A DNA stretch of 64,000 nt from a virus. Of this stretch, positions 221 through 58,626 are shown piece by piece. A program made the position numbers and the translations under genes. Numbering within the stretch: the first letter of the stretch is position 1; the number at the start of each line of letters is the position of its first letter. A model generated the notes under the pieces. That model saw only the letters and a list, made by a program, of their open reading frames with translations, was not told where the DNA came from and did not search any database. The stretch lies in IMG/VR virus record IMGVR_UViG_3300022723_000177, positions 1 through 64,000 of that record; one strand, 5' to 3'.

Positions 221-477
221 TGTTGCACCTCAGTGCCAAGTGTCGAACCCACAGGCATCCCGGCGGCAGCTACCACCCTAACCCCCTGATACATAAAGAC
301 TTTCTAGCGTTCCGCTGGCACTACACCCACCGAAACCGGACGGTTTTGGATCGGCAACTAGGCCGCACAAGCCCCTGAATTTACTAATCTTTTTCAACGC
401 ACAGCCCTAGGCTCTCTGCCCACGGGGGCTCGATCGTTCTGCGCACCCCCTGCCGCCGAACCCCACCCCCTTGGGGA

Positions 478-497
478 CCCGCGGGGTACCCCGCGGG
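478..497. promoter_or_regulatory. 20-bp perfect palindrome cccgcggggtaccccgcggg (candidate operator)
   Basis: Self-complementary 20-mer. A related cccgcgggg copy lies at about 555-565. Confidence 0.5.
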
Positions 498-518
498 GCA
501 TTAATTACCGACCCCTGT

Positions 519-535
519 GCACAATATTTGTGCAT
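519..535. promoter_or_regulatory. AT-rich palindrome TGCACAA-TAT-TTGTGCA (operator or promoter-like) inside the regulatory region
   Basis: 7-bp arms are exact reverse complements. Local AT-rich island in a 68% GC genome. Followed by three TGAAAT direct repeats at about 580-625 spaced about 19 bp apart. Confidence 0.45.
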
Positions 536-728
536 ATTTGAAAAACTCGGGATTCCCGCGGGGCCCCAATTCCAGAATCCTGAAATTCCTGCTCGAGTGA
601 AATTATCGATTTCGCTGAAATAGGCGACACAGAAGTGTGTAACTGGTCGGGCACCGCGCGGCGAGGTATGCTGCGCGCTCACTGCCGGCGCAGGGGCCGG
701 TCCAACTACCCTCGAGAGGAATACGCTC

Positions 729-1019
729 ATGGCAATTGTTCAGGCCGAGCTCGACACGCTCAACACCGCCATCGCCGCGGTCGACACCGCGATGGACACC
801 GTCATCGCTGGCTGGGAAACCGGCGACGATCTCACCTTCACCCCCGGCACCGCGTTCGAATCGCTGACCGTCGGCCCCCAGACGTTCAAGAACGAGAACG
901 ACGGTTCCACCTTCATCGGCTCCGACGAGGCCCGCGCGCTGGGCAACACGAACCAGGCCGTTCAGAACATCTACGCGCTCCTGAGCCTCGGCGTCTGGAG
1001 CTCCACGGTCGCTGCGTAG
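729..1019 (+). CDS. Hypothetical small protein (96 aa)
   Basis: First clean ATG ORF after the regulatory region. No recognisable domain. Confidence 0.45.
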   Translation: MAIVQAELDTLNTAIAAVDTAMDTVIAGWETGDDLTFTPGTAFESLTVGPQTFKNENDGSTFIGSDEARALGNTNQAVQNIYALLSLGVWSSTVAA

Positions 1020-1338
1020 GGCCTTACCCCTGCCCCGCCCCGCGTCGGACGCGCTACCCCGGCGCGGGGCACCCCCGTGATCAAACCGAGAGGAGTAGAA
1101 CATGCATATCCCATAGAAGGAGATAGCAGATGTTCTACTCGCGCTCGCGCTTCAATCATCCTCTCAGCAAGATCCAGGGCTTCGAAGACTGGTTCTACAC
1201 GGGCGGTAGTCGAAAGTTCGGCCACATGCCCTCGAAGAAGGGGAACCGCCGCTAGCCCAGTGCAAAGTGCCAAGGTGCCTCGTACCTCGGCCTCCTAGAG
1301 CCCTAGAGCCCCCACCACACCGAAGACGGAGAACACCC

Positions 1339-1635
1339 ATGCCGGATTCCGATGCCCCCATGCCGCGCGAACTCGCCGAAGCGATCGCGGATGCGATCGC
1401 GGATGCGAGCGCCCGCGAAGCAGAAGCCCAGACCGGCGTGGTCGAGCTCGATCGCGCACCCACCCACGAGGAGCTCGAGCGCCTCGCCAAAGCGGGCGTG
1501 ACCGAAATTCGCCTCACCGAACCACCGGCAGAGCCCTTCGGCACCCTCGAGTTCGTGCCCGAAGGAGACGGCGTTGAAGAGAGTCCAGGCGAGCTCAAGC
1601 CCAACCAACGCCCCTGCACCTTCACTCGCCGGTAG
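1339..1635 (+). CDS. Hypothetical acidic small protein (about 98 aa)
   Basis: ATG at 1339 preceded by gaagacggaga (RBS-like). Coding-like composition. Confidence 0.45.
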   Translation: MPDSDAPMPRELAEAIADAIADASAREAEAQTGVVELDRAPTHEELERLAKAGVTEIRLTEPPAEPFGTLEFVPEGDGVEESPGELKPNQRPCTFTRR

Positions 1636-1645
1636 GAGCGGGCGC

Positions 1646-2275
1646 TTGGCACTTGGCACTTCGCCCGCCAAGAAGAAGCAGACCCGCCGCAAGAAAGGCA
1701 CAGCCTCCGAGGTGTGCTCGAAGTGCGGCGAGCGGCCTCCGCAGCGCAAGCACAACTACTGCCAGCCGTGCAAGCGCGCGTACGACCGCGAGCGGTACCT
1801 ACGACAGCGCACGAAGATCATCGCTGGGACGAAAAAGCGCGTGGCGACCAACCGCGAGAAGCTGATGGAGTTGAAGGCCGGGCGCGTCTGCGTCGACTGC
1901 GACGTGCAGTACGGTCCGCACGTGCTGCAGTTCGACCACCGCGACCCATCGAAGAAGCACATGAACGTGTCCGACATGATCGGGCGTGGATACGCGTGGA
2001 AGAAGATCGTCATCGAGATCGAGAAGTGTGACGTGGTCTGCGCGAATTGCCACGCCGAGCGGACCTTCCGAACCCGCGGGCGGAAGAAGGCCAAAGCGCC
2101 GGGCGGGAACCGACCTGAGCCGTCGACCGAGAAAGAGCGCGATGAGCAGATCCTGCAGGAGACGCTCGAGGAGATGCGCTCGAGGCTGGGGCTTCCTGGG
2201 GACGAGGAGCTGACCGAGCTCAGGGAAACGCTGAATAGGGGGCTCCGCGCGCCAGAGCGGGATCACGAGTACTGA
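1646..2275 (+). CDS. HNH endonuclease
   Basis: Translation shows CxxC...VCVDCD...QFDHRDP...N...CANCH, the HNH/zinc-finger nuclease signature. Start assigned to the TTG at 1646 (AGGAG 7 nt upstream); the start is uncertain. Confidence 0.65.
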   Translation: MALGTSPAKKKQTRRKKGTASEVCSKCGERPPQRKHNYCQPCKRAYDRERYLRQRTKIIAGTKKRVATNREKLMELKAGRVCVDCDVQYGPHVLQFDHRDPSKKHMNVSDMIGRGYAWKKIVIEIEKCDVVCANCHAERTFRTRGRKKAKAPGGNRPEPSTEKERDEQILQETLEEMRSRLGLPGDEELTELRETLNRGLRAPERDHEY

Positions 2276-2893: not shown

Positions 2894-3475
2894 ATGAAGG
2901 TCGCGGTCTACGCGCGCGTGTCGAAGGCAGACGGCTCCCAGACCGTCGAGAATCAGCTCGGGCCCCTACGGGCGTACCTGGGCTCCAGGGGCGACGACGT
3001 CGCCGCGGAGTTCGTGGAACACGCCTCGGGAGCCGACGAGAACCGCAGCGAGCTCGGCGCGCTCCTCGAAAGGCTCGACGAGTTCGACGCGATCGCGATC
3101 GTGAAGCTCGACCGGCTCGCCCGCAGCGTCCACCACCTCACCTCTCTGGCCCGCGAGCTCGAGAGCCGTGGCGTCGACCTGATCGTGAAGGATCAGGGCA
3201 TCGATACCAGCACACCGGCCGGGAAACTGATGTTCCACGTCCTCGGCGCGGTCGCGGAGTTCGAGCGCGACCTGATCGTCGAGCGCACCAAGGCCGGCCT
3301 GGCCCGCGCCCGACGGGAAGGCAAGCAGGTCGGCCGCCCGCGCCTCCAGATCGACCTCGACCAGGCCCGCGCGGTGCTCCTGCGCGAGGGCAGCTACGCG
3401 AAGGCAGCGCGTGAGCTCGGGGTCCCCGCGACCACGCTCCGGCGCCACCTCCGCGAGGAAGGGGCTTCAGCGTGA
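2894..3475 (+). CDS. Small serine recombinase (resolvase/invertase family)
   Basis: MKVAVYARVSKADGSQ N-terminus with the catalytic Ser motif YxRVSxxxQ. C-terminal HTH (AKAARELGVPATTLRRHL). ggagga RBS 6 nt upstream of the ATG at 2894. Confidence 0.85.
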   Translation: MKVAVYARVSKADGSQTVENQLGPLRAYLGSRGDDVAAEFVEHASGADENRSELGALLERLDEFDAIAIVKLDRLARSVHHLTSLARELESRGVDLIVKDQGIDTSTPAGKLMFHVLGAVAEFERDLIVERTKAGLARARREGKQVGRPRLQIDLDQARAVLLREGSYAKAARELGVPATTLRRHLREEGASA

Positions 3476-9971: not shown

Positions 9972-10838
9972 ATGTCCGAAGAGAACAAGAACAAGAACGG
10001 CGGCGAAGGTGATGAGAGCGGCGAGAACAAGCCCAGCCAGGTTCAGATGACCCAGGAGCAGATCGAAGAGCTGATCAACAAGGCCTACGCGCGCGGCGCG
10101 AAGAACTCCCGGGAGGGCAAGGAAGCCCGCGAGACCGCAGAGCGCCTCGAGAAGATGGAAGCCGACAAGGCCAAGGTCGAGGCAGAGCTCGAGGAGCTGA
10201 AGAAGCGCGCCGCCCAGGGCGGCGCAGGCGGCGGCGCAGGCGGCGGCGCAGGCGGCGGCGCAGGCGGCGGCGCAGGCGGCGGCGACGGAGCTGGTAGCCC
10301 CGAGGTCACTCAGCTCCAGGACCAGATCGAGACCCTCAAGAAGAACTACAACGACCGCATCGAGACCCTGACCGGAGAGATCGCGTCCGAGCGGAAGGAA
10401 AAGGAAGCCCGAGACCTGAGGCTGATCCTGAGTGACCTGAAGGGCTCGGCGATCGCAGCGGCAACAAAGGGCGGAGCTGCAGACCCCGAGGATGTGTTCA
10501 TCCTGATGAACTCCAGGGGGCTGTTCAAGATCGACGAGGACACAGGTCGGTGGCACGTTACGGGCCCCGACGGCAAGGTAGTCCTCGATGTCGAGGCGGG
10601 TGGCGACCCGATGGCCTTGGAGAAGGGCATCGAACGCTGGATGGACCAGAACCCGCGAGTGAAGCGGGGGACGGGGCGCACGGGCGGAGGCCCGGGTGGT
10701 GGTGAGGGAGGTTCCCACACCGAAGTGCCTATCGGAGGAGACAAGACCCTGAACCTGGACGGCGCATCGCCGTCTCAGATCTTCGCGAACAAGGATGCGA
10801 TCCTGGCGAAGATCAAGTCGGGCGGTCTCCAGCGCTAG
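9972..10838 (+). CDS. Scaffolding protein (coiled-coil, with a (GGAGGG)5 linker)
   Basis: Charged coiled-coil-type sequence between portal and capsid genes. ATG at 9972 with ggag RBS. Internal tandem DNA repeat at 10216-10277. Confidence 0.6.
   Translation: MSEENKNKNGGEGDESGENKPSQVQMTQEQIEELINKAYARGAKNSREGKEARETAERLEKMEADKAKVEAELEELKKRAAQGGAGGGAGGGAGGGAGGGAGGGDGAGSPEVTQLQDQIETLKKNYNDRIETLTGEIASERKEKEARDLRLILSDLKGSAIAAATKGGAADPEDVFILMNSRGLFKIDEDTGRWHVTGPDGKVVLDVEAGGDPMALEKGIERWMDQNPRVKRGTGRTGGGPGGGEGGSHTEVPIGGDKTLNLDGASPSQIFANKDAILAKIKSGGLQR
10216..10277 (+). repeat. Tandem 12-bp repeat (ggcggcgcaggc) x5 encoding a (GGAG)n flexible linker inside the scaffold gene
   Basis: Direct reading of the sequence. 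Confidence 0.8.
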
Positions 10839-12758: not shown

Positions 12759-13733
12759 ATGGCGAGCGACTTCCCGCCCATCAACCGAACGGAAGCCCAG
12801 ATCGTCGGACGAGTTTTCGAGGACGAGGTCCGCGATCTCATCGACATCTGGAACACCACCGAGCAGCGCCTGATCGAACTGGGGCGCGACCCGATCTTCT
12901 TCGCCTCGCTTGGCTCCGGCGCCAGTGGAGCCGCCGCGGCGCAGCAGCGCGCTACCGAGCTCATTCGCGAAGTGCGAAGCGCCCTACAATCGATGACCTC
13001 GGCCACCATCACCTGGTCCGACGCCCTGTTCGTTCAGGCCGGCGCCGCGGCTACGTTCACGGTGGAGAGTGCAGCGACACAGGGGCTGACTGCGGGGGCG
13101 TTGGGGGCACCGAACGCGGATTCGATCCGCCTCATCCTCGAGGATCTACTCACGGACACCGAGTTCGCCGAAAGCTCGGCACTTCGCACTATGCGTCGCT
13201 TCTACCGAAATACCCAGCAGACGGTGCTGCCGGAGGGAGTGATCAACGCGAACCTGGCGATCTCGGAGGCGAGGATGGAGAATGTGAGCCAGCGCTCGCG
13301 CCGCCTCGCGAACGAGTTCGACAAGGTCGTCGGCCAAGGCAAGTTCGTGCTGGTGAATGGCCAACGCTTCCAGCTCACCACCTACGCGGACCTGGTCGGT
13401 CGCACCCGCCTAGTAGAAGCGAATACCGTGGGATCGCTCCGAACCAACGTCGCGATGGGCAACGATCTGGTCCGGGTGTCCGACCACGGGAAGACAGACC
13501 CCAACTGCGACCGGTTCGCGGGGAAGGTGTTTTCGATCTCAGGGCAGAGCCGGCGATTTCCTCGCCTCCGCGAGGTTCCTCCCTTCCACCCCCGGTGCAA
13601 GCACATCCTGCTACCCTTCGTCACGGAGTTCAAGAGCCCCCGCGAGCTCGAGTTCGCGGAGGCCCGCAGCCGAGACCGTGTTGAGGCCGGCGTCAGCATC
13701 GAGGAGTTCTTCAGTGTCCGTGGCGCTTCCTAA
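12759..13733 (+). CDS. Phage head morphogenesis protein (Mu gpF / SPP1 gp7 family)
   Basis: C-terminal CDRFAGKVFS...PPFHPRCKHIL matches the Phage_Mu_F signature (PPxHxxCRC-type motif). Confidence 0.7.
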   Translation: MASDFPPINRTEAQIVGRVFEDEVRDLIDIWNTTEQRLIELGRDPIFFASLGSGASGAAAAQQRATELIREVRSALQSMTSATITWSDALFVQAGAAATFTVESAATQGLTAGALGAPNADSIRLILEDLLTDTEFAESSALRTMRRFYRNTQQTVLPEGVINANLAISEARMENVSQRSRRLANEFDKVVGQGKFVLVNGQRFQLTTYADLVGRTRLVEANTVGSLRTNVAMGNDLVRVSDHGKTDPNCDRFAGKVFSISGQSRRFPRLREVPPFHPRCKHILLPFVTEFKSPRELEFAEARSRDRVEAGVSIEEFFSVRGAS

Positions 13734-22424: not shown

Positions 22425-22426
22425 GC

Positions 22427-30621: not shown

Positions 30622-31524
30622 ATGCACGCCCTTGTACTCAGCGGCGGGGGAGCGCTGGGTGCCTGGAGCGCCGGCGCGGCCTCCGAGATCGTCCGCTTCT
30701 TCGCCACCACCCACGAACCGATCGCGCTCATCTCCGGGACCTCCGTCGGCGCGGCCAACGCGGCGAAGCTGGTCCAGGACGGGCCCGACCCGCTACTCGA
30801 GCTCTGGCGCAACGTCACCCGCAGGGACGTCTACGTGCGAGGTGCCGCGGGCCCACTGACCTCGGCCTACCGGCTCCTGCGGGGGCGCCCTCTCTACGAC
30901 ACCCGGCCCCTCGCCGCACTGCTCGGTCGCGAGCTCAGCGCGGCCAAGATCGCGGCCTCTCGCTGTGAGCTTCGCGTCCACGCAGCCGATCTAGGCTCCA
31001 GGGCTCTGGTGACCTGGACCGGGCGCTCTCCGGGCCTCCTGGAGGCAATCCGCGGATCCATGGCGATCCCTGGGTTGTTCCCGCCGGTGAGGGTGGGCGG
31101 CCTGGCCCTGGTCGACGGTGGGGTCGTGGCCAACGCCCCGATCGGTCCGGCGATCCGCGCGGGGGCGACGCGCGTGACAGTCCTGCACCCGGACAACGAG
31201 GTGGTGGTGCCCCCGAGGGAGGCCGAGGAGCTGCTGCGGCCGAAGAGCGTCACGCCGGCCTGGCTGTGGGATCGCTCGGCACTTCGCACTTTGAAGCGCT
31301 CGCTCGAGATCATGTTGACCGGCCACATGGAGCGGGACATCCGGATGACGCGCATGGCGAATCAGCTCGACAGCTACCGGACGGTGCGGCTCGACGTGAT
31401 CTCGCCCCCGACCGCACTCGACCCAGACGGCGGAGCACTACTGGACTTCCGGCGCGAGGTTCTCGACGCCCTGCTCGAGCGCGGGATCCGTGACGGCCGG
31501 CGATGGATCCGGAGGCGCGCCTAG
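30622..31524 (+). CDS. Patatin-like phospholipase
   Basis: LVLSGGGALGAWSAG (oxyanion hole), GTSVG (GxSxG nucleophile) and a later DGG (catalytic Asp). Start at the internal ATG at 30622, with a GAGG-type RBS upstream and a 1-nt overlap with the endolysin stop. Confidence 0.8.
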   Translation: MHALVLSGGGALGAWSAGAASEIVRFFATTHEPIALISGTSVGAANAAKLVQDGPDPLLELWRNVTRRDVYVRGAAGPLTSAYRLLRGRPLYDTRPLAALLGRELSAAKIAASRCELRVHAADLGSRALVTWTGRSPGLLEAIRGSMAIPGLFPPVRVGGLALVDGGVVANAPIGPAIRAGATRVTVLHPDNEVVVPPREAEELLRPKSVTPAWLWDRSALRTLKRSLEIMLTGHMERDIRMTRMANQLDSYRTVRLDVISPPTALDPDGGALLDFRREVLDALLERGIRDGRRWIRRRA

Positions 31525-35861: not shown

Positions 35862-35865
35862 GTCA

Positions 35866-36538: not shown

Positions 36539-36988
36539 TGTTCTCTCCCCCTGGTGGGTTCAACGAGGCCTTCGGAGCGGAGCGGTGAGGGATGAACGAC
36601 GGTGCATACTGTATGCGGTGCGTTCGCCGCCTCTCTCCGAAGGCTGATGTATCACAATGCAAGCCGCGAGCCAAGTGCAAAGTGCCACGAGACCGCGCAC
36701 AGCGGCTTCCCAGTTCTGGCGCCACTGGAACCGGTGACGAGGCGTGTCACTAGGTGCCGCAAAATGCGGCTCTGCCACATTAGCTCCGTCCGAGGCCGGC
36801 CCCGGACGGTTCGGACCCGTCGAGTGATTCTGGTCCCTCAGGCTCCTGAGGGGTTGGGCTTTCCATGGCGCTGTAAGCCACCCACACCTCTCTGCGAGAA
36901 ACGCGCCCGGTCCAGTTGCAATCGGGACACCCTTGGGTGGTGGCTCCACAGCCCGCGCACGCTACTACCCGCCAACGGACGAGCCGCC

Positions 36989-37198
36989 TCACTCAGGTAT
37001 CCTCCAGTTCGTCGCGATCTCGCGCTCGCGGTGTTGACGCAGGTGCCTGTGAAGCCCGGATTTGGTACGGATCGGCACTTCGCACGTTGCACACCAGCAG
37101 TACCCCATGACGTGGAAGAACGCCTCGACGTCGCTGTCCAGACCGACGCGGCAGTAGCTCACGTCCCGAGCTCTACGACCCACCCGAAGCTCCGCCAA
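36989..37198 (-). CDS. Small zinc-finger-like protein (C..C...H..H)
   Basis: GYCWCATCEVPIRTKSGLHRHLRQH in the translation. Confidence 0.3.
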   Translation of the reverse strand: MAELRVGRRARDVSYCRVGLDSDVEAFFHVMGYCWCATCEVPIRTKSGLHRHLRQHREREIATNWRIPE

Positions 37199-38675: not shown

Positions 38676-38705
38676 TTGCTATTTTGGCACGAGGGTTGCT
38701 ATATC
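38676..38705 (+). promoter_or_regulatory. Sigma-70-like promoter candidate (TTGCTA - 18 nt - TATATC) for the rightward replication operon
   Basis: Hexamers read directly, about 50 bp upstream of the ATG at 38753. Confidence 0.35.
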
Positions 38706-38752
38706 GCCTGGCACAACAACACGGTCCACGGACCACGAAAGGGGTTTCGAAA

Positions 38753-39784
38753 ATGGCATTCTCTCCCTACATGAACGGCATGAGCGCAGAGCAGATCCGC
38801 AGCGGCATCCAGAGCATGGATCCGGGACGCCGCTCGTCGCTGATCTCCCGCGCCTTCCCCGGCACTCCGCTGCCGAAGGGCCTGACGGTCGCCGAGGCCC
38901 TGCACGAGGCCGGTGCGAACTTCAACGTCACGATGGCTCCTCAGCACACGAAGAATCCGGTGACGGGTGAGTGGCAGGAGAGTCGCAAGAGCGTCGGCCT
39001 GCTGCGGACGGACACGGGCGCCGAGGTCGGCTCGGCCACGGGCTCCTACGGAATCATCCAGTCGGTGGACTGCTTCGCGGCGGCCCAGGCGCTCGTCGAG
39101 CGCGGCACCCTCAGCCTGGACTTCTGCCAGGTAGTCGACGGAGGAGCGAAGGTTCGGCTCGGCGGCCTCATCGGGTCGAGCACAATCTACCAGGCGAGCC
39201 GCCCGGATGACGCGGACATCCTGGCCCACTTCGTGCTCTTCGAGGCGAATCACTCCGGTGCAGGCAAGAGCACGGGTCAGCTCTACACGCTGCGGCTGGC
39301 CTGCTTCAATGGCATGACTTCGAAGGAGCTCGCCGGCCAGTTCGGGATCGCCCACTACGCCAACGGCACGAAGAAGATGCTCGAGGCCTCGGCGGCGCTG
39401 CTGCATGTCCACGAAGCCGCGGTCGAGGAGGCCGCGATCTTCCAGCGCCTCGCGCTTCACGAGCTCTCGCTCACGCGCTTCCGCGAGTTCGCCGTTGACC
39501 TGCTCGACGACACGCGCGGGTTCTGCGACGTGGATGAGGACTCTAAGGCGCGCGTCACGCGTCGGGTGAACGACATCGAGGAGCTCGAGAACTACTTCCT
39601 GAAGGGCGCAGGCAACGCCGGCCGGACTCACTACGACGCGTACAACGCGGTCACGGACTGGCTCACGCCTCGGCGGGAGCGCCTGAAGGATGCGCAGGCC
39701 TTCGCCAAGCGGTTCGAGTCGACGACCAGCGGCAACGCAGCTACTGTCAGGAGCCGCGCGCTCAATCTGCTGAGCCGCTGGTAA
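38753..39784 (+). CDS. Phage/plasmid-related protein (possibly DUF932-like)
   Basis: 343 aa. Start at the internal ATG at 38753. Family assignment is from memory of DUF932 features only. Confidence 0.5.
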   Translation: MAFSPYMNGMSAEQIRSGIQSMDPGRRSSLISRAFPGTPLPKGLTVAEALHEAGANFNVTMAPQHTKNPVTGEWQESRKSVGLLRTDTGAEVGSATGSYGIIQSVDCFAAAQALVERGTLSLDFCQVVDGGAKVRLGGLIGSSTIYQASRPDDADILAHFVLFEANHSGAGKSTGQLYTLRLACFNGMTSKELAGQFGIAHYANGTKKMLEASAALLHVHEAAVEEAAIFQRLALHELSLTRFREFAVDLLDDTRGFCDVDEDSKARVTRRVNDIEELENYFLKGAGNAGRTHYDAYNAVTDWLTPRRERLKDAQAFAKRFESTTSGNAATVRSRALNLLSRW

Positions 39785-39861: not shown

Positions 39862-40128
39862 ATGCCGACGAAGAGAAGAGTCGCTGGTGCGGGCGCCCAG
39901 AAAGGGCACTCCGCAAGAACAAACCCCCGGCGACTGCTGTGGGACACATTCAAGGAGCTCGGTCCAGGTCGACCGGCCACGGTCCGTGAGCTCGAGAAAG
40001 GCACAGGCCTAGGGCGTTCGTTCCTCGGCACGCTCTGCAGACAGCTCGAGAGGCGCGGCCGTATCCGCCGCATTCAGCTCCCGAAAGGAAAAGGCGACGC
40101 CTGGGTTCTGATCGCGTCACCTTCCTAG
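39862..40128 (+). CDS. Winged-helix DNA-binding protein (putative transcriptional regulator)
   Basis: RPATVRELEKGTGLGRSFLGTLCRQLERRGRIRRIQ is wHTH-like. 88 aa. Confidence 0.5.
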   Translation: MPTKRRVAGAGAQKGHSARTNPRRLLWDTFKELGPGRPATVRELEKGTGLGRSFLGTLCRQLERRGRIRRIQLPKGKGDAWVLIASPS

Positions 40129-47732: not shown

Positions 47733-48718
47733 GCTTCAGGCCCTACATGCATGTGGAGAGGCTTGGCCACCCCGAGGTTGATGGCATCGAGATCGGCACC
47801 GTTCACGTCTTCCCCAAGCTTGACGGCACCAACGCTAGCGTCTGGGTCGAGTACGGCGACGACTCACCAGAGCTCCACGCCGGCTCTAGGCGGCGGCACC
47901 TGACACTCGAGGCGGACAACCACGGGTTTTGTCGGTGGGTCCACGAACAGTCGGCGGATCCGAGCTCACCTCTGCAGAAGCTGGACCAGCGCCATAGTGG
48001 GCGTGACTGGATCCTCTACGGCGAGTGGCTCGTGCCCCACACGATCAAGAAGTACCGCGACGACGCGTGGCGCCAGTTCTATGTGTTCGATGTCTACGAC
48101 CGCCTCTACGATCAGTACATCCCGTTCGAAGAGTATGAGCCTGAGCTCACCTCGGCTGGGCTCAATGTAGTCTACCCTCTCGCGATCGTGACGAACCCCG
48201 ACGACGCTGCGCTTCAGCGCCTGGTCAACCAGAACACCTACCTCATGCTCGACGGGCAGGGCGCCGGCGAGGGCGTGGTGCTCAAGAACTACGACTTTAC
48301 CAACGCGCACGGCCGTCAAACGTGGGCGAAGATCGTTCGCAACGAGTTCAAGGAAGACGCGCGCAAGGCAATGGGTGTCTCCGAGATCGACGGCAAGGAG
48401 CGCATCGAGACCAAGATCGCTCAGACGCTTTGCACTTCGCACTTGATCGACAAGACGCGACTCATGGTAGAGAAGATGGCGTTTGCCCAAAACGTTGATG
48501 GCTACGCCGAGCAGGATCCTGAGGCCTACGAACAGTGGCTCGCCAAGAACCGCGGAACGATCATCCCTCGCCTGCTCCAGACCGTGTTCTACGAGCTCGT
48601 ACGCGAGGAGATCTGGCACATGCTTAAGCTCGAGAAACGGCTGCCCACCATCGACTTCAAGCGTCTCCAGCAGGAGACCACTCTGGCAGTGAAGCGTCAC
48701 TGCTCGGACTTGTTCTGA
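47729..48718 (+). CDS. ATP-dependent polynucleotide ligase, Rnl2-like (RNA ligase or nick-sealing ligase)
   Basis: Motif I FPKLDGTNASVW (KxDGTN, compare T4 Rnl2 KIHGTN). 329 aa, similar to Rnl2 length. Not a classical KxDGxR DNA ligase. Confidence 0.6.
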   Translation: MSFRPYMHVERLGHPEVDGIEIGTVHVFPKLDGTNASVWVEYGDDSPELHAGSRRRHLTLEADNHGFCRWVHEQSADPSSPLQKLDQRHSGRDWILYGEWLVPHTIKKYRDDAWRQFYVFDVYDRLYDQYIPFEEYEPELTSAGLNVVYPLAIVTNPDDAALQRLVNQNTYLMLDGQGAGEGVVLKNYDFTNAHGRQTWAKIVRNEFKEDARKAMGVSEIDGKERIETKIAQTLCTSHLIDKTRLMVEKMAFAQNVDGYAEQDPEAYEQWLAKNRGTIIPRLLQTVFYELVREEIWHMLKLEKRLPTIDFKRLQQETTLAVKRHCSDLF

Positions 48719-48966
48719 TGCTGGTCGTGAAGGTGGAGCTCTGGCCGTTCGGCAACGAGGAGTCCAAGCGCACGCTCGGCACGATGCGGATCTCCAACGA
48801 CGCTACCGGGACAACGACACGCGGGAACTACAACGTCCGCGTCTTCAGCAGGGACGGCCGCGAAACGCACAAGGTGCGGGTCGAAAACTATCCCCGAAAA
48901 GCGCTCAGCGTCTGGGCGCTAGTGTATCAAGCGCTCGTACACTGCAGTTTCAGGAAGAATCTGTGA
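48718..48966 (+). CDS. Hypothetical protein (82 aa)
   Basis: ATGCTG overlap coupling with the upstream ORF. Confidence 0.45.
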   Translation: MLVVKVELWPFGNEESKRTLGTMRISNDATGTTTRGNYNVRVFSRDGRETHKVRVENYPRKALSVWALVYQALVHCSFRKNL

Positions 48967-49346
48967 TGGCCTGGCCGCAGGACGTCACCCGCGCGGATCT
49001 TTCGATCACCTACTACAAGGGCAGCGGCCCGGGTGGGCAGAACAAGAACAAGCGTGACACCGCCTGCAGGATCGTCCACGCGCCTACAGGGTTGTGGGCG
49101 ACCAGCGAGACACACCGCACGCAACCCCAGAACAAGACCGAGGCGTTCCGCCGCCTGGCCAAGAAGCTCGTCCCGATCATGAAGGGCGACAAGAAGGGTC
49201 CGGGGCTTCCGACCGAACGCATCCGCACCTACCACGAGAAGCGGGGCGTGACTGACACCCGGGTTCCTGGGCGAACCTTCGAGTACAAGAGAGTGCTCGA
49301 CGGCGACCTGGACGAAATCCTGAACGAACTGATGGAGGCACGATGA
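48963..49346 (+). CDS. Peptidyl-tRNA hydrolase domain protein (GGQ motif), ArfB/ICT1-like ribosome rescue factor
   Basis: YKGSGPGGQNKNKRDTACRIVHAPTGL...ETHRTQPQNKTEAF matches the class-I release factor GGQ domain (SGPGGQxVNKTDSAVRITHIPTGI...SQHKNK). Stand-alone 127 aa with a basic C-terminal tail, as in ArfB. Confidence 0.75.
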   Translation: MMAWPQDVTRADLSITYYKGSGPGGQNKNKRDTACRIVHAPTGLWATSETHRTQPQNKTEAFRRLAKKLVPIMKGDKKGPGLPTERIRTYHEKRGVTDTRVPGRTFEYKRVLDGDLDEILNELMEAR

Positions 49347-52669: not shown

Positions 52670-53127
52670 CGTGTTCTGAGTGCGAGCGGGTGGCCAGCTA
52701 CATGGCTGCTGATCCAGAACTCTATCGCGGTGATGAGCGGGCCTGCTCCGCGCACCGCGCACGAACCCGAGACGTGCCAGCTAACCCACTCTCTCAGTCG
52801 ACAAGGGCCAACCTAGTGGGTACATCGGGTAGGAGCGCCGCTGGCACCCGAACGTCGGGGTCATCAGACGTGACGGCGGGAGAGACCGCACCTGTTTCCG
52901 GGGGTGAGTGGGACGACGTCTTTTGGCGGCGCTGTTCACGGGCGCTCGGCGCACCGACGGAGAATCCGAGCGGTACGCCCCACCACCCTCTTCTGGTTCT
53001 GAAGTCTCTCCGCACCAAGTGGTGGAGTGAGGGAAGGCAAGCAACACTGAATGATCTCAAGAAGATCAAGGAGAAGCGAGATGCTGAGCAAGACAAACAT
53101 CAAGACGAAGATCGACCGAGGACGTGA
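52666..53127 (+). CDS. Hypothetical protein with N-terminal CxxC
   Basis: MTCSECERV... ATGA-coupled. Overlaps the next gene by 47 nt, so one of the two starts may be wrong. Confidence 0.35.
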   Translation: MTCSECERVASYMAADPELYRGDERACSAHRARTRDVPANPLSQSTRANLVGTSGRSAAGTRTSGSSDVTAGETAPVSGGEWDDVFWRRCSRALGAPTENPSGTPHHPLLVLKSLRTKWWSEGRQATLNDLKKIKEKRDAEQDKHQDEDRPRT

Positions 53128-53410
53128 CGGAAAGGGGCGGGGTAGCAAGGGCGTCCACTCCATCACCTTCGAGTTCGCTCGCCCCGACAACCGGGTGACG
53201 TCTACCCCGCTGCCGGTGCCGAGCTTCCGCGTCTTCAAGCGCAACGCGGAGTTCGCCTACTGCGAGCTACTCATGAACCTCGCGGAAGGCAAGGTGGCGA
53301 AGGCCGCCGAGCTCGCCGGCACGGACCGCTCCAGCTTCTACGCGCTGATGTATCGCTGCGGCTTCCGCAGGAAGAGCGGCAGGGCGTTGTCGCTTGGGGC
53401 GCGGCTGTAG
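53081..53410 (+). CDS. Small DNA-binding protein with Fis-type C-terminal HTH
   Basis: KVAKAAELAGTDRSSFYALMYRCG is Fis/NtrC-like HTH_8. gagaagcgagATG RBS. Confidence 0.5.
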   Translation: MLSKTNIKTKIDRGRDGKGRGSKGVHSITFEFARPDNRVTSTPLPVPSFRVFKRNAEFAYCELLMNLAEGKVAKAAELAGTDRSSFYALMYRCGFRRKSGRALSLGARL

Positions 53411-53778
53411 TGGAGCGGGATCCCACCGAAGAAGAGGTGTACCTGGCCTTGCGGGCCAGCAGTAGGGTCATGCGGGACTTCTCCTATACCGCGGCCTGCG
53501 TGGCCATCGGCGTCGGACTCATCGTCGGCTTCATCGCCTACGAGCTCGGGGTCAAGCGCGGCTACGCCCTTTGCGCGATGGAGGCCATCGAAACCGCCTC
53601 AACGCCCCCGCTCGCTGGGGACGAGGTGGTCGTGGAAGCCTCATGGCCTGGCACTTTGCACGTTGACACCAACGAGGACGAGCCGGCCACTCCCCACTGT
53701 ATCACTGCTCTGATCTGCTTCACCCCGTACGATCGGGCGCCGAAGATGGAGGCCAAGCACCATGCGGATCGCGATTGA
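53410..53778 (+). CDS. Small membrane protein
   Basis: AACVAIGVGLIVGFIAY transmembrane segment. GTG start. Confidence 0.4.
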   Translation: MERDPTEEEVYLALRASSRVMRDFSYTAACVAIGVGLIVGFIAYELGVKRGYALCAMEAIETASTPPLAGDEVVVEASWPGTLHVDTNEDEPATPHCITALICFTPYDRAPKMEAKHHADRD

Positions 53779-54196
53779 CTTCGATGGAGTGCTCCACAGC
53801 TACACGAGCGGCTGGACGGGGCAGGTCCCCTACGATCCTCCTGTCGACGGAGCGCAGCAAGCGATGGCGAAGTTGCTCGAGCAGGACCACAAGCTAGTGG
53901 TCTTCACCTGTCGAATTAACGCGACGGAAAAAGACGACCTGAATTCGTGGCAGGTACACAATGTGCTCCGCCAGTGGTTTCGGGCCAACGGCTTCCCTTC
54001 GGAGTTCTGGGATGATGACAAGCACGGGAGTGCTGTATTCACGACAAGCGACCTCGTCGAGATCACCGGGACCAAGCCCCACGCCGACATCTACATCGAC
54101 GACCGGGGTATGCGCTTCGAAGGTCACTGGAACGACGTCCTGCACGACCTTCAGGTCGAGACCGAGACGACCCCGTGGCACAAGCAGCCGGCCTGA
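53762..54196 (+). CDS. HAD-superfamily phosphatase (polynucleotide 3'-phosphatase / 5'-nucleotidase-like)
   Basis: MRIAIDFDGVL (DxDGV motif I), LVVFTCR (motif II Thr), K...ADIYIDDR (motifs III/IV). Confidence 0.6.
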   Translation: MRIAIDFDGVLHSYTSGWTGQVPYDPPVDGAQQAMAKLLEQDHKLVVFTCRINATEKDDLNSWQVHNVLRQWFRANGFPSEFWDDDKHGSAVFTTSDLVEITGTKPHADIYIDDRGMRFEGHWNDVLHDLQVETETTPWHKQPA

Positions 54197-54356
54197 TCAT
54201 CCTGGGGGCGCTGATGCTCGCGTGCGCTCACCCGCCGTGCCCTGCCTCACTGGACGGGGTTGAGGTCAGGGTAGACGGGGGACACACCAACAGCCCCGTC
54301 CCCGATTTCCGGGGCCAGTACGTGAGCGTCGGCGCCTCCTTCTACTTCAACACAGC

Positions 54357-54638
54357 ATGCATCGAGGAGACACAGGAATGACCGGTCTGCACGCTCCGGC
54401 CAAACAGGCAATCCGCCTGTGGCGGTGGCAAGACGCCCCGCCTCTGGTGCGAGACTTCTGCGAGTATCGGGGAGGCTACAACGATGTGCTCTGGGTGATG
54501 CTACTGCCCGAAGGCATGAAGCCCGCCGACGTGCCTCTCTCCCCGATCAATTTTTGCAGCGTGGGGATCCAAGAGCTCCACACGAAGCAGTACCTGATCA
54601 CCGGTTACAACCCCGGTGAGGACGAGGAAACCGAATGA
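54357..54638 (+). CDS. Hypothetical protein (93 aa)
   Basis: Coding-like ORF with ggagacacaggaATG RBS. Confidence 0.45.
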   Translation: MHRGDTGMTGLHAPAKQAIRLWRWQDAPPLVRDFCEYRGGYNDVLWVMLLPEGMKPADVPLSPINFCSVGIQELHTKQYLITGYNPGEDEETE

Positions 54639-55087
54639 AGATCTGGAACGTCCACTACCGGAAAACGGACGGGCTCCGCGTGCTCGAGCGCGGAGGCGTC
54701 ACGCTTTCATGCGGGTATGACCCGGAGACAGAGAAGCTTCACATCGGCGTCGCTGTCTGCTGCAGCAAGGACCACTACCACAAGCGGCGTGGCGCGTCGA
54801 TCGCGAGCGGTCGGCGAGACTTGGGTATGTTGTGCGATCGCCCTGACCTCGAGCCCGACCTCTACTACCGCGTGAACTGCCCGGCCGGCACCCCCATCAG
54901 CCGCATCTGGGCGGCACTCGATGGTACAGCTGCTGTGGCCAGGGCGCTCTACTCGAGGAGGGGCGAGGATCTCGACATGTTTTTCCTGCGAAAGGGTCCA
55001 CTGCCGGACACCGAGTTGCTGCAGACCGCGCTCAGCGGATACTTCGGCGAGGAAGAGAACGTCGAAGTCTCGGTGCATCGGGCGTGA
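54635..55087 (+). CDS. Hypothetical protein (150 aa)
   Basis: ATGA-coupled. Confidence 0.45.
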   Translation: MKIWNVHYRKTDGLRVLERGGVTLSCGYDPETEKLHIGVAVCCSKDHYHKRRGASIASGRRDLGMLCDRPDLEPDLYYRVNCPAGTPISRIWAALDGTAAVARALYSRRGEDLDMFFLRKGPLPDTELLQTALSGYFGEEENVEVSVHRA

Positions 55088-55380
55088 GTTCGCCGCAAGA
55101 GGACTATTGCCCCACGCGTGTCGTTTCCTACCCGCTCATGCTCGGGTATGGGTATCAGACCGCGCTCATCCCGCAGGGCTCCGAGATCCTGCACTTCGCG
55201 GGACACTACGGCTGCCCTATGATCTGGGTCAAGGCAAAAGTGATGGCGGAGAGCGTGGACCTGGGAGTCACGCTTTTCATCTGTCCAGACAACGCCGATC
55301 TACCTGAAGAGAAGCTCGACCACATTGGAACCTCTCACATCAACGGCATCGTGATGCACCTTTTCCGGAGGCCCGAATGA
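55084..55380 (+). CDS. Hypothetical protein (98 aa)
   Basis: Overlap-coupled. Confidence 0.45.
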   Translation: MSSPQEDYCPTRVVSYPLMLGYGYQTALIPQGSEILHFAGHYGCPMIWVKAKVMAESVDLGVTLFICPDNADLPEEKLDHIGTSHINGIVMHLFRRPE

Positions 55381-56033
55381 TCACCTGTGTCTCGGGCTCG
55401 CGCACCGTCAGGGATCGCGAGCTCGTGTATGATCTGCTCGACCGCACTCCCTGGGTGCCTACGCGTGTGAACCACGGGGCCGCAGGAGGGGTCGATCGCC
55501 TCGCACGTTCGTGGGCGCGGCTCAACGGCATCCCCGAGAGCCCCTGGCTCCCGCGCTGGATGGCGAGCGGGGGCGATGCAGGCAAGAGCGTCGACAAGGC
55601 CGCTGGTCTCAAACGCAACGCGCTGATGGTGCGGGCCAGCCAAGCGTTTGTAGCGATCTGGCATATGCCCTCCCGCGGCACCAAGCACGCCATCGGTTGC
55701 GCGAAGCACGGCGGGATCGTTCGCATGGTCTGGCAAAAGGCGCCACAGCGAGATTGGATGTTCCAGCTTTCGCTGCCTTGTCACACCGGCGAGCACTGGG
55801 TCGTAGGAAAGCCGGGCAAGAGCGAAGGACTGAATATCGTCACCGAAGTGTACGAGGAGCACCCCTACTCTCCGAAGGCCTGGGGATGGGACGGTGAGAA
55901 GAAGGTGTTCTTCCGCGTGACCGGCAAGGGCAGCGCCTACGAGAAGCGGATCGAGATCAACCCCGACGCTAGCGCCTGGCTGGCTGCAGACACTCCCCCC
56001 TACAACGAGATCGGAGACCCCAATGGGCGATGA
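55377..56033 (+). CDS. SLOG-fold protein (DUF2493 / DprA-Smf-like Rossmann domain) with C-terminal extension
   Basis: ITCVSGSRTVRD...HGAAGGVDRLARSWARLNGIP...RNALMVRASQAFVAIW...GTKHAIGCAKHGG matches the DUF2493/SLOG pattern. Confidence 0.55.
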   Translation: MITCVSGSRTVRDRELVYDLLDRTPWVPTRVNHGAAGGVDRLARSWARLNGIPESPWLPRWMASGGDAGKSVDKAAGLKRNALMVRASQAFVAIWHMPSRGTKHAIGCAKHGGIVRMVWQKAPQRDWMFQLSLPCHTGEHWVVGKPGKSEGLNIVTEVYEEHPYSPKAWGWDGEKKVFFRVTGKGSAYEKRIEINPDASAWLAADTPPYNEIGDPNGR

Positions 56034-56151
56034 GACCACGACGAGAACCTCGATGCGTTCATCGTCGCCCACCTGACCTCCGCCATCGAATTCACCACCA
56101 CGCAGGCCGAGCTCGAGGAGCAGGCCGAGCAGTCCAAGGAGACCAACTAAC

Positions 56152-56442
56152 ATGGACAGCACTTCCATCTATCTTGTCGGCGGGTTCGTTCTGCTCGGCA
56201 TCATACTCCTCGCGATCGGGTGCCTCTCCGGCCCAATCATCCGGGTCGAGACCTCCAAGGACCAGCGCAAGCTGGACGCTCAGAACGCGGCCCTGGAAAC
56301 CCAGCGGCGGAAGGAGAAGATCCTCGAAGAGCTCAAGCGTCAGGCGCAGGAGCCTGACAGCGGTTCCGAGATGCGTGGCCGCCCGACACGTCGCACTTCG
56401 CAGCGCGGTGCCCGCAACCCCAACCGCCGGCCGCGGGGCTAA
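56152..56442 (+). CDS. Small membrane protein (1 TM) with basic tail
   Basis: IYLVGGFVLLGIILLAIGCL transmembrane segment. Confidence 0.4.
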   Translation: MDSTSIYLVGGFVLLGIILLAIGCLSGPIIRVETSKDQRKLDAQNAALETQRRKEKILEELKRQAQEPDSGSEMRGRPTRRTSQRGARNPNRRPRG

Positions 56443-56459
56443 CCGCGGAGGGGACTGAC

Positions 56460-57284
56460 ATGACACACAGACACGAAGACTTCAAGGTGGAGCTCAAGGC
56501 CCTCGGCAAGACGCTCCTCGAGCAACGGCGCGCCAACCTGCACTCAGGCCAGAGCCTCGAGAGCGCGTGGAATCGTGGCTTCAACGCGGCGATTGAACAA
56601 GCAGCGGGGTGGCTCATGGGTGACCGCGTTCTAACGTCGATCTGTATCTCTCCCGAGAACCAGCTCCCCCCGAGCACCTACGAAAACCCAGAGGTCAAGA
56701 TCCCCGGATCCATCGGCGACGCGCGCGAGCAGAACGAGCTCAAGCTCGACGACCTGTCGCGGCGTCTGCTCGACGTTGTCGGAGAGTTCGAGGACCAGAT
56801 TTGCGAGGTGATCCTGGACCACCCCAAGATCAACGACGCACTCTCGCAGGTGGCGAAGGTCGAGGCGCTCCGGGCAGGCAGGATCCACTGCACAGATGAG
56901 GAGGTCCGTGAGATCGCCAGGCGTGTGTTCGCACAGGAAGCAGTGTCAACGGCGTTGCGAGAACAGTGGTCGCAGCTGGTGCGGGAGGAATGCGAGGCGT
57001 TCCTCTACAACCACCGCCACAGCGCTCGACCCCATGTCATGCCCGAGGGCGAGGACGAGCCGAATCGCTCTGGTGCGCGCCCTTTTCCCGAGCTGCCGGT
57101 GAAGACCCTGCGCGAAGCCCTCCATCCTGAGGGGTTCGGTATGGAGCGCCGCGAGGCCAAGAGCGAGGCCATCAAGGACGCAAAGCGCGTTGCCACAGAG
57201 CCGGGTGGACGCTTCACTCCGTTCAAGGCTGGGCGCCGCGACCAAGGCTTCAACACCACCCGGACCGAGAGTAGTGACAACTAG
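56460..57284 (+). CDS. Hypothetical protein (274 aa)
   Basis: Clean ORF with ggaggggactgacATG RBS. Confidence 0.5.
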   Translation: MTHRHEDFKVELKALGKTLLEQRRANLHSGQSLESAWNRGFNAAIEQAAGWLMGDRVLTSICISPENQLPPSTYENPEVKIPGSIGDAREQNELKLDDLSRRLLDVVGEFEDQICEVILDHPKINDALSQVAKVEALRAGRIHCTDEEVREIARRVFAQEAVSTALREQWSQLVREECEAFLYNHRHSARPHVMPEGEDEPNRSGARPFPELPVKTLREALHPEGFGMERREAKSEAIKDAKRVATEPGGRFTPFKAGRRDQGFNTTRTESSDN

Positions 57285-57313
57285 GCACTTCGCACTTCGA
57301 AAGGAACAATCGA

Positions 57314-57642
57314 TGGTGACCGAGATCCCTATGACCCCTACGGCGGAGACGTCGCTCGAGGACGAGGCCGAACAGCTCGCGTTCGAGAACTGGAGGGAGC
57401 TCCCGGAGACCGTGCGCGACGCCGCACGCGACCTCGGGCTCTTTCTGCGCCACGGCCAGACGTTCAACCGCCGCGGTGAGGTGCTCGAGCGCTTCCGCGT
57501 TCTGGTCCGCTTTCTCCAGCTCGAAGGAGACCGCCGGCACTTGGGCGACCGATTTCGCGCGGAGGCGCGCCGCATCGCCGTCGACCAGGTGCTGTGTGAG
57601 CCTCCTGTGCCGCCGCGGGACGGCTCGGAGACTCCTCGATGA
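57314..57642 (+). CDS. Hypothetical protein (109 aa)
   Basis: ATG at 57314, preceded 30 bp upstream by motif copy GGCACTTCGCACTTCG and aaaggaacaatcg RBS. Confidence 0.5.
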
Positions 57643-57863
57643 TGGCGTTTCTTCTCGACGTCTACCTGGTGGGCGCGGCCTTCACCGCGTTCGCGATCTG
57701 CTGGGGCCTGGGGAGCGACTCGGTCGACTCGGAGGACATCGTCGAACGGTGTGGGTACCCCCTCCTGGGGGCGGTCGCGGCCGTCATGGTCCTAATCTGG
57801 CCCGTGCCCTTCGTGATCGGGGTGGTTCAGCGATGGAAGTCGGGAAAGGACGTAGGGGGCTAG
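57639..57863 (+). CDS. Small membrane protein (2 TM)
   Basis: Two hydrophobic segments. ATGA-coupled. Confidence 0.45.
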   Translation: MMAFLLDVYLVGAAFTAFAICWGLGSDSVDSEDIVERCGYPLLGAVAAVMVLIWPVPFVIGVVQRWKSGKDVGG

Positions 57864-57917
57864 GATCGAGCGAGAACCGCGGGCCAGGCCGGCGCGCTGG
57901 CGCTCTCAGGAGGCTTC

Positions 57918-57955
57918 GAGGCTCCGCCCCATCGGTGGAGCCTCTTTTCGTTTCG
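57918..57955 (+). terminator. Rho-independent terminator (gaggctcc-12 nt-ggagcctc followed by ttttcgtttcg)
   Basis: 8-bp perfect stem plus T-rich tail, directly downstream of the 57863 stop. Confidence 0.6.
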
Positions 57956-58027
57956 GGCCCTCAGAGGGGATTCTGGGCTCCCGGACGAGACACCCCCGGG
58001 GTTCGGCACCGCCTTCGTCGCCGGGGT

Positions 58028-58043
58028 CGTTCCACGTGGAACG
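58028..58043. promoter_or_regulatory. 16-bp perfect palindrome cgttccacgtggaacg (operator candidate)
   Basis: Self-complementary. Located in the 760-bp non-coding region 57864-58626. Confidence 0.45.
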
Positions 58044-58626
58044 GAATCGTGCGTTGCGAGCACAACGAGCTGACGATGAGATCTCATTTTTGCGGCAGCC
58101 CGTGGCGAAGTGACGCACAGTCACCCTAGATGCCCAGTGCCAAGTGCCTAAGAAATAGGCACCGTGGCCAGTGTGCGCGGCCGGCGCGGACGGGCGAGGT
58201 GGGGGTGCCAACTTTGGCTGCACCCCTGAGCGCCCCGCGGGCGGCGCATACATTAGATCTGAGCCATCCACTCGGGGCTTGAAAGAGGAGAGCAAAATCA
58301 CCCGTGGGGGGTACCTCAGGGGAGGTATTGCACCTGCGGGGGCAGTTGGGGTGAGGTCAGTGATGCGTGGGGGCTTGGCACGGGGCCGGCGAGGGCCCTC
58401 ACTATCCAGCTAACCATATCCAGTACGCAACAGGAGACCCCTAGGTAGCGCGAGCTCCCCGTAGTTATATTCCTCTTTTCTTCTTCTTCAAGAGACAGAG
58501 GTACTCTATGGACGGACGGCGCTCGCTCTAGGTCGCTCTCTTGGCAAGGTGGATTGTGGATATCTGGAGAGCCTTGTGAAGAGCTCCCACCCTAGGTTAA
58601 TCTAGGCCGCGACCAGAGGAGACCCG

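Follow-up and report, generated by a model that had tools for sequence, protein, structure and literature searches.

How does a short tandem repeat come to recur in both orientations across 58 kb of a phage genome, mostly within genes, and what might read it? The question is raised by the window analysed here, a stretch of 64,000 nucleotides (nt) at positions 1 to 64,000 of the IMG/VR virus record IMGVR_UViG_3300022723_000177, which belongs to a tailed-phage genome of ~66 kb with 63% G+C, known from metagenomes only. An earlier note had listed ten copies of a motif in which two direct GCACTT half-sites lie one base apart, and had proposed a binding site for a regulator or sigma factor, or a replication or packaging element. 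The arrangement of the half-sites is borne out and all ten places hold the motif or part of it, including an array of three heptads, which lies at 1642-1661. The copy at 232-242 is present but has two mismatches, and that at 56393 combines one good heptad with a degenerate one (ACACGTC GCACTT) and is validated by the upstream box and score described below. The list was incomplete, missing copies at 1258-1270(-), 12970-12982(-), 30833-30845(-) and 53651-53663(+), and the total comes to 14 sites. The repeat is one part of a larger bipartite site that is placed and paired non-randomly and is under selection as DNA where it lies inside genes. From the sequence it is possible, and we suggest tentatively, that the 14 sites are asymmetric operator or roadblock sites for a phage DNA-binding protein, which is predicted to bind them.

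The motif is strongly non-random. Allowing up to one mismatch, GCACTTNGCACTT is matched 12 times on the two strands of the window against an expectation of 0.16, in agreement with the claim that far fewer copies would be expected than are seen, and none of 100 dinucleotide-preserving shuffles reached 12 matches. Five copies are exact (1649, 31279, 36673, 48432 and 57285). The lone hexamer GCACTT is only mildly enriched, with 38 occurrences against 22 expected, so that the signal resides in the tandem arrangement, and since matches with two or more mismatches occur at near the expected number the sites form a discrete set.

The full site is ~37 base pairs (bp) long, asymmetric and of fixed spacing, with the consensus GCCGrGnT-N13-GCACTTnGCACTT. 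The upstream element, box A (GCCGrGnT), covers -21 to -14 when the first G of heptad 1 is taken as the reference. All 12 of the 12 sites compared have a C at -20 and eight of them read GCC at -21 to -19, whereas in 2000 random sets of 12 oriented positions the best conservation of any trinucleotide in the 60 nt upstream did not exceed 5/12. The 13 bp between the boxes are unconserved and none of the sites has an indel there, which suits a rigid reader. The heptad period is exactly 7, with two strong heptads (three at 1642-1661 and 48425-48444) and weak flanking ones. Conservation also extends to the flanks of the 13-mer, as a G just before heptad 1, a CT at -4/-3 and an nGC after heptad 2, the last of these resembling a heptad register in decay. 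With a matrix made from the aligned sites and covering -24 to +16, the known sites score 22-42 bits against a maximum of 18 for shuffled sequence. The matrix adds the sites at 56386(+), with 27 bits, and 30845(-), with 25 bits, each with a good box A, to give the 14 sites and one doubtful site at 58371(+) (Table 1).

Genes were called from codon-position GC content. The sequence is also present in public assemblies, as a JGI contig of 65,843 bp and as two Logan contigs of SRR23862443, and our calls concur with the genes annotated there. Non-coding DNA makes up 8.4% of the window, and five of the sites fall within it (243, 1270, 36685, 57285 and 58147), the remaining nine of the 14 being intragenic. 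The intergenic excess has a P of 0.002 for 5/12, a count that includes the two-mismatch site at 232; among matches with at most one mismatch only 4/12 are intergenic. Eight sites are in the sense orientation, four are antisense within genes and two lie in long non-coding DNA. Four of the sense sites are 16-134 nt upstream of the next start codon, one is on a start codon and one is 274 nt upstream. The proximity to gene starts that had been noticed for three copies is confirmed: the site at 57285 ends 16 nt before the ATG at 57313, that at 36673 is 134 nt upstream of the start at 36539 and that at 1649 overlaps the TTG start at 1646. All four single sites of the right arm (48432, 53651, 56386 and 57285) are co-oriented with the genes, at 274, 99, 62 and 16 nt before the next start, respectively. 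The other feature of the placement is the pairing. Eight of the 14 sites make up four close pairs, each of them divergent, with box A on the inner side and the heptads on the outer; four close, all-divergent pairs have a frequency of 2e-5 in 200,000 random placements of 14 oriented sites. The pair interiors are not AT-rich, and comparison of those of pairs 1 and 4 revealed no shared homology. In both intragenic pairs the antisense member is exactly 223 nt past the start codon of its host gene (12759/12982 and 30622/30845), which may be a coincidence.

The intragenic sites were compared with the nearest relatives of the phage, L002, L003, L004 and L100, which share ~50% portal identity with it and were examined through loci of ~21-22 kb. 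De novo k-mer and heptad searches of these loci found neither the motif nor an analogous heptad motif. In the minor head gene the relatives have RAELEAM..RERT and SSAQRT where the window has RSALQSM..TSAT and SSALRT; the box A of site 13179 re-uses conserved DTEF codons and one relative has a proto-site there, GCACAACGCACCC. In the RNA ligase gene LCTSHL is specific to the window. Window-specific residues (SAL, TSAT and LCTSHL) are found at three intragenic sites in two genes, at positions where the relatives are conserved or differ. The sites would appear to have arisen in place through substitutions, some of them non-synonymous, which argues for a function of the DNA sequence itself. As the earlier note cautioned, the copies at 13179 and 31279 both encode SALRT and, with the overlap of box A and the DTEF codons in a relative, this might point to chance, codon bias or a repeated peptide as the origin of the motif. 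The remaining sense coding copies, however, spell ALGTS, CTSHL and GTLHV, the sense copies use two frames, two more copies are antisense and four strict matches are intergenic. When synonymous codons were shuffled among all genes, retaining each protein and the codon usage and leaving the four intergenic copies untouched, the mean was 0.14 coding copies as compared to the 8 observed, so that neither this shuffle nor the dinucleotide one, each of which expects fewer than 0.2 copies, approaches the real counts. Refuted by the shuffles and the frame analysis, an origin in chance, codon usage or peptide sequence has a negligible likelihood.

Of the functions suggested for the motif, a regulator binding site is still the best reading, with action at the level of the DNA, although the anatomy then given was incomplete, lacking the 37-bp bipartite structure, the full set of 14 sites and the four divergent pairs. 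One sequence-specific protein, most likely encoded by the phage and with a specificity peculiar to this lineage, would dock at all 14 sites. This protein, or a small fixed complex, would read box A and the direct GCACTT heptad pair on one face of the DNA, two helical turns apart, and as the two elements would be read at rigid spacing the bound site would be polar. A box A at fixed distance across an unconserved spacer fits a protein that reads duplex DNA. The bound sites may then serve as operators or as elongation roadblocks, positioned at module boundaries and dividing the genome into expression modules. At the junctions of genes, as at 57285, and at the 3' ends of upstream genes the bound protein would gate entry to the next gene, while at the back-to-back pairs, 200-430 bp apart, it might block both directions or form a loop through the paired bound proteins. 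At 36685 it would occlude the -24 box of a sigma-54 promoter and so interfere with the closed complex or with contact between enhancer and promoter.

For the binder, the MarR-like winged helix-turn-helix (wHTH) protein and the Fis/NtrC-type helix-turn-helix (HTH) protein of Table 1 are reasonable candidates, and NtrC-type HTH domains read GCAC-containing half-sites such as TGCACCAnnnTGGTGCA (PMC8743547), a lead only for the protein encoded at 53051-53410. Nothing links any candidate to the motif. Several observations weigh against operators or roadblocks. Searches of the small open reading frames (ORFs) against Pfam, PHROGs and PDB sequences for the binder returned weak HTH and zinc-finger hints only, and the candidate binders gave nothing useful against PDB sequences. 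No repressor, integrase or partition genes were recognised in the window, so the phage may be strictly lytic. Some of the nine intragenic sites are several hundred bp from any gene boundary, unlike the stoperators of mycobacteriophages, and to explain the four antisense sites as reverse blocks or looping partners is ad hoc. Finally, as the motif is in no relative, there is no evolutionary co-variation of protein and site.

Table 1. Coordinates of the heptad sites, their pairs, candidate binders, sigma-54-type promoters and genome modules in the window
Feature	Position	Strand	Description
Site 1	228..264	-	Heptads 231-243 (ACACTTGGCACTG); box A 257-264 (GCCGGGAT); left-end non-coding DNA; 33 bits
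Site 2 (pair 1, left)	1255..1291	-	Heptads 1258-1270; box A 1284-1291 (GCCGAGGT); 39 bits; begins 3 nt past the stop of gene 1130-1255
Site 3 (pair 1, right)	1628..1664	+	Three heptads 1642-1661; box A 1628-1635 (GCCGGTAG); the TTG start that it overlaps (1646) is that of the HNH endonuclease gene
Site 4 (pair 2, left)	12967..13003	-	Heptads 12970-12982; box A 12996-13003 (GCCGAGGT); antisense within minor head protein gene 12759-13733
Site 5 (pair 2, right)	13158..13194	+	Heptads 13179-13191; box A 13158-13165 (ACCGAGTT, coding for the conserved DTEF); sense within minor head protein gene
Site 6 (pair 3, left)	30830..30866	-	Heptads 30833-30845 (GCACCTCGCACGT); box A 30859-30866 (GCCGAGGT); antisense within patatin-like gene 30622-31524; detected by the full-length matrix alone
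Site 7 (pair 3, right)	31258..31294	+	Heptads 31279-31291; box A 31258-31265; 42 bits; sense in patatin-like gene
Site 8 (pair 4, left)	36670..36706	-	Heptads 36673-36685; box A 36699-36706; non-coding
Site 9 (pair 4, right)	37054..37090	+	Heptads 37075-37087; box A 37054-37061; antisense within ORF 36989-37198(-), in codons of the C2H2-type zinc-finger pattern
Site 10 (single)	48404..48447	+	Heptads 48425-48444 (ACGCTTT GCACTTC GCACTT); box A-like ATCGAGAC 48404-48411, in register with the first, degenerate heptad; sense in RNA ligase gene
Site 11 (single)	53630..53666	+	Heptads 53651-53663; weak box A; sense in gene 53410-53778
Site 12 (single)	56365..56401	+	Heptads 56386-56398 (ACACGTCGCACTT); box A 56365-56372 (TCCGAGAT); sense; 27 bits
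Site 13 (single)	57264..57300	+	Heptads 57285-57297, within the 28-bp gap between stop 57284 and ATG 57313; box A 57264-57271, in the last codons of the upstream gene; 39 bits
Site 14	58132..58168	-	Heptads 58135-58147; box A 58161-58168; in the 763-bp non-coding region after terminator 57918-57944
Weak, doubtful site	58350..58386	+	9-10 bits; 224 bp right of site 14 and divergent from it; overlaps sigma-54 -24-like TTGGCACG (58375)
Pair 1	1270(-)/1649(+)		379 bp apart
Pair 2	12982(-)/13179(+)		197 bp apart
Pair 3	30845(-)/31279(+)		434 bp apart
Pair 4	36685(-)/37075(+)		390 bp apart
Candidate binder, C2H2-type ORF	36989-37198	-	69 aa, C-X2-C-X12-H-X3-H; Pfam zf-C2H2 E = 0.14; contains site 37075
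Candidate binder, MarR-like wHTH	39862-40128		
Candidate binder, Fis/NtrC-type HTH	53051-53410		
Candidate binders, small ORFs			Directly downstream of sites 36685 (66 aa, 36339-36539(-)) and 57285 (109 aa, 57313-57642)
Sigma-54-type promoter	38684-38699	+	Perfect match; 54 nt before ribosome-binding site and ATG 38753
Sigma-54-type promoter	63284-63299	+	54 nt before ATG 63353
Sigma-54-type promoter (TTGGCTCGCGGCTTGC)	36659-36674	-	Abuts site 8; 120 nt upstream of ATG 36539
Packaging, head and tail genes	700-31524	+	Patatin-like gene last
Accessory genes	31731-38503	-	
Replication and nucleotide-metabolism genes	from ~38750	+	

The promoter next to site 8 is one of three. With at most one mismatch TTGGCACGNNNNTTGC occurs three times against 0.19 expected, each copy being upstream of, and co-oriented with, a gene start and two being plainly non-coding, and the three match the sigma-54 consensus TGGCACnnTTnTTGC (PMC8743547). 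The promoter at 38684-38699 is within the over-long ORF 38558-39784, and the true start of this DUF932 gene is probably the ATG at 38753. An 18-nt element that contains a palindrome, CGCAWWWTGCGKCACCTA, is found 76-88 bp upstream of two of the three promoters, at 36751-36768(-) and 38602-38619(+), and is a candidate enhancer (upstream activating sequence). Site 8 spans about -26 to -59 of the promoter at 36659-36674, placing it between the candidate enhancer at 36751-36768 and the -24 box, with which it overlaps by 2 nt. Neither an enhancer-binding protein nor an RpoN-like signature was detected in the window, and the phage appears to depend on sigma-54 and an activator of the host; three sigma-54 promoters in a phage lacking an enhancer-binding protein would imply sigma-54 in the host. 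The motif itself has GGCAC in common with the sigma-54 -24 box and its TTnGCA resembles the -12 element, but the obligatory sigma-54 spacing GG-N10-GC (TGGCAC-N5-TTGC) is present at only two of the 14 sites, at 1654-1668 and in the promoter abutting 36685. With its GG-to-GC distance 4 bp short, the motif was rejected as a sigma-54 promoter. A sigma-70-type promoter was likewise rejected, since the box coordinates do not give the 16-19 bp between -35 and -10 and six sites point at no gene; scans for sigma-70-like promoters and for terminators found none at the sites.

A sigma-factor promoter is therefore not supported: six of the 14 sites do not share the orientation of any gene, the sigma-70 geometry is not matched and the sigma-54 spacing is confined to two sites. 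A new class of promoter, used by RNA polymerase with an unusual or phage-redirected sigma factor and with box A docking a phage co-factor, would account for the elements shared with sigma-54, for a bipartite motif of fixed spacing and for sense sites that are mostly upstream of gene starts, in a phage that uses sigma-54 promoters and in whose window few sigma-70-like promoters were detected. It is nevertheless distinctly unlikely, given the six sites that are antisense to, or point away from, any gene, and a box spacing that fits neither sigma factor. The heptads at 57285 are only 16 nt from the ATG and so leave no room for a leader with a ribosome-binding site. The window yielded no gene for a sigma factor, an RNA polymerase or an enhancer-binding protein, and a homologue of the sigma-r4 protein of a relative is absent from it. 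By analogy with the appropriation of sigma by MotA/AsiA of T4, the host sigma-54 polymerase might be re-targeted to a -24 GGCAC with a -12-like TTnGCA 4 bp closer, a phage factor docked on box A compensating for the difference and the motif marking promoters or closed complexes. We regard this as improbable; were it true, the back-to-back pairs would give divergent transcription or paired polar roadblocks inside genes. The sites might instead handle DNA, as polar barriers to forks or translocases (in Ter-like inverted pairs), as centromere-like partition sites or as programmed single-strand nicks, and for this speak their asymmetry, their dispersed and largely intragenic placement and the inverted pairs, together with an HNH endonuclease gene that abuts the three-heptad site and the presence of ligase-related genes. 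Programmed nick sites are known in T5 and phiKMV-like phages, but there they are on one strand, whereas the sites here are on both. The centromere-binding ribbon-helix-helix (RHH) protein of pSM19035 reads repeats of heptad period, although its full activity needs at least four contiguous heptads (PMC9499535) as compared to the two or three seen here, and scans with Pfam and PHROGs recognised no ParA, ParB or RHH protein. Several fork traps in a 66-kb genome would also hinder the phage's own replication, and a role in DNA handling is unlikely overall. The two other roles raised earlier fare no better: a packaging element is at odds with sites scattered across 58 kb and within genes, and for replication the tandem-repeat cluster at 62959-63156 is the better origin candidate. 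Origin iterons were rejected on the same ground, the motif being dispersed and the cluster, with its 22-24-bp tandem repeats, separate from it.

The inverted pairs invite the further explanation that they flank invertible segments of 197-434 bp (invertons, some of them intragenic) flipped by a recombinase such as the small serine recombinase encoded at 2894-3475. There are four inverted-repeat pairs with one consensus and inverton-like spacing, the gene, for a resolvase with an HTH, is present, pair 4 flanks a non-coding region that bears a promoter, and intragenic invertons that create premature stop codons have been documented in bacteria (PMC10028968). Against this, five or six sites lack an inverted partner nearby, the two arms of one pair resemble each other no more than arms from different pairs do, and the four right-arm sites are direct repeats between which recombination would remove essential genes. 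The minor head protein and the patatin-like protein would both be cut short by an inversion; in-frame recoding by inversion was rejected because stop codons appear instead. The JGI and Logan assemblies have a single orientation at the sites they share (pair 1 and 53651-58147; pairs 2-4 are outside the Logan loci fetched), though a minority orientation could be hidden in such consensus assemblies. The recognition helix of the resolvase (..ELGVPxTTLRR..) is near-identical in L002, and the loci of all four relatives, including the homologous minor head gene, are without the motif; as the helix is conserved where the motif is missing, the resolvase was rejected as the reader. Invertons are thus quite unlikely. 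The ends of miniature inverted-repeat transposable elements (MITEs) or other transposons were also discarded, as pairs 1 and 4 have no interior homology and pairs 2 and 3 lie in uninterrupted Pfam domains that align with relatives without an insertion. Lastly, the motif might act in RNA, through long-range duplexes formed by paired arms or through recognition by a small RNA: in a transcript a divergent pair reads as the reverse complement followed by the motif, so that ~12-14 bp could pair, and two sense sites are at translation starts. The arms do not co-vary, however, each fitting the common consensus, and in pairs 1 and 4 the two arms have different spacer bases between their heptads. No Rfam family was found at the sites in gathering or E-value mode, the folding of the pair 4 interior is no stronger than that of shuffled sequence (z = -1.29), and the fixed distance to box A across an unconserved spacer fits a reader of duplex DNA. 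An RNA-level role is very improbable.

If the sites are operators or roadblocks of a DNA-binding protein, several known systems bear comparison. The stoperators of the Cluster A mycobacteriophages (the L5 gp71 or TipsytheTRex repressor) are 13-mers with a consensus of the GGTGGMTGTCAAG type. They too are asymmetric and present in many copies across a phage genome, as are the 14 sites over 58 kb here, but their sequence is another and the present sites are of 37 bp, with boxes 21 bp apart, one of which is a direct heptad repeat. Stoperators are found in promoters and short intergenic gaps, nearly all one way with respect to transcription, in contrast to the nine of 14 intragenic sites and the eight of 14 in divergent pairs seen here. 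A stoperator at a gene junction is bound by a monomeric repressor with two DNA-binding domains, which blocks elongating RNA polymerase in one orientation only (PMC9283540); no homologue of this immunity repressor, with its HTH and second DNA-binding domain, was detected in the window by Pfam or PHROGs. Some C1 operators of phage P1 come in pairs, and there are reports of looping between them. The dispersed, asymmetric 17-bp operators for the one C1 repressor of P1 number 22 (PMC8546580), although the AT-rich P1 operator ATTGCTCTAATAAATTT is not bipartite and no C1-like protein is encoded in the window. The omega protein of pSM19035, an RHH ParB and small global regulator, reads contiguous 7-bp repeats cooperatively (PMC9499535). 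The contiguous 7-bp unit is a likeness, but the WATCACW-type sequence differs from the motif, the arrays hold 7-10 heptads of mixed orientation at a few promoters rather than two or three direct heptads with a distant box A at 14 places, and no RHH family match was found in the window. Membership of the stoperator, P1 C1 and omega families thus fails on sequence, length, placement or orientation. Sigma-54 promoters and the widespread intragenic binding sites of sigma-54 have the GGCAC core and TTnGCA in common with the motif, in which the distance from GG to GC is 4 bp too short. Bacteroides-type invertons resemble the present set in that several loci have one inverted-repeat consensus flanking segments of 200-430 bp, with a gene for a small serine recombinase present (PMC10028968). 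They differ in that the set includes unpaired sites, that its arms are 37-bp asymmetric sites and always divergent, and that relatives lacking the motif share the conserved recombinase; the consensus assemblies showed no alternative orientation.

A scan of IMG/VR with GGCACTTCGCACTT gave 95 single matches in unrelated contigs, which were taken as chance, and a full-text literature search with the motif strings found no description of it. For the phage itself, no DNA-level match to the window was found in INPHARED, its terminase is less than 30% identical to that of any deposited phage, and portal patterns had no match in IMG/VR or GTDB genomes. The structure and layout of the sites are new and, since no close relative carries the motif, we infer their function from the sites themselves.

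Several other features of the genome were noted. At the left end five genes (729-2717, including the HNH endonuclease, 1646-2275) have no counterpart in the loci fetched for the four relatives, while the small serine recombinase gene beside the packaging genes (2894-3475) is conserved in 4/4. The left contig end (1-140) has degenerate C-rich repeats (CCCCTGCCCCGCCCC and similar), with an extra copy at 1027-1043 after gene 729-1019; independent assemblies break at these repeats, which may represent the genome end or a packaging region. Seven of the eight copies of GCACCCCC are non-coding (203, 443, 1069, 58201(-), 62961, 62984 and 63002), and GTTGGCACCCCC is near both non-coding heptad sites 243 and 58147; this may be a second regulatory motif. 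The second of these two sites is in the 763-bp non-coding region 57864-58626, which follows a strong intrinsic terminator (57918-57944) and also holds the -24-like TTGGCACG. At 62959-63156, within 327 bp of non-coding DNA downstream from the DNA polymerase module, three adjacent tandem-repeat pairs with repeats of 18-22 nt and a period of 23-24 bp are iteron-like and a candidate replication origin. A 12-bp tandem repeat, GGCGGCGCAGGC, is present in ~7 copies at 10207-10290 inside a scaffold-like gene, where the Logan assembly breaks. A tRNA gene at 31534-31615(-) scores 47.7 bits against Rfam RF00005 but was missed by ARAGORN and by the Rfam gathering mode; its anticodon-loop region is 21 nt as compared to 11 in the model, which could be an insertion or an intron, and no exact match to its 3' end was found in GTDB genomes. 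The cargo is unusual in including a patatin-like phospholipase (30622-31524), a protein with a type IV pilin N-terminal methylation motif (32517-33062(-)) and an RF-1-domain protein (48963-49346). Much of an apparent intergenic gap is occupied by a minus-strand ORF of ~88 aa, 38236-38503(-).

Dispersed asymmetric operators are known from few phage groups, the Cluster A mycobacteriophages and P1, with phiC31 also among them. The set described here would be an independent and structurally different example, bipartite, based on heptads and arranged in back-to-back pairs, with sites accommodated in coding sequences at the expense of amino-acid changes. The uncultivated phage lineage in which it occurs also makes use of promoters for host sigma-54. 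If the predicted binding is correct, the sites would constitute a compact, polar protein/DNA module of 37 bp and a test case for the evolution of genome-wide regulatory sites inside genes. Should the pairs turn out to invert or to be nicked, they would instead represent a phage-wide system of programmed DNA rearrangement or interruption.

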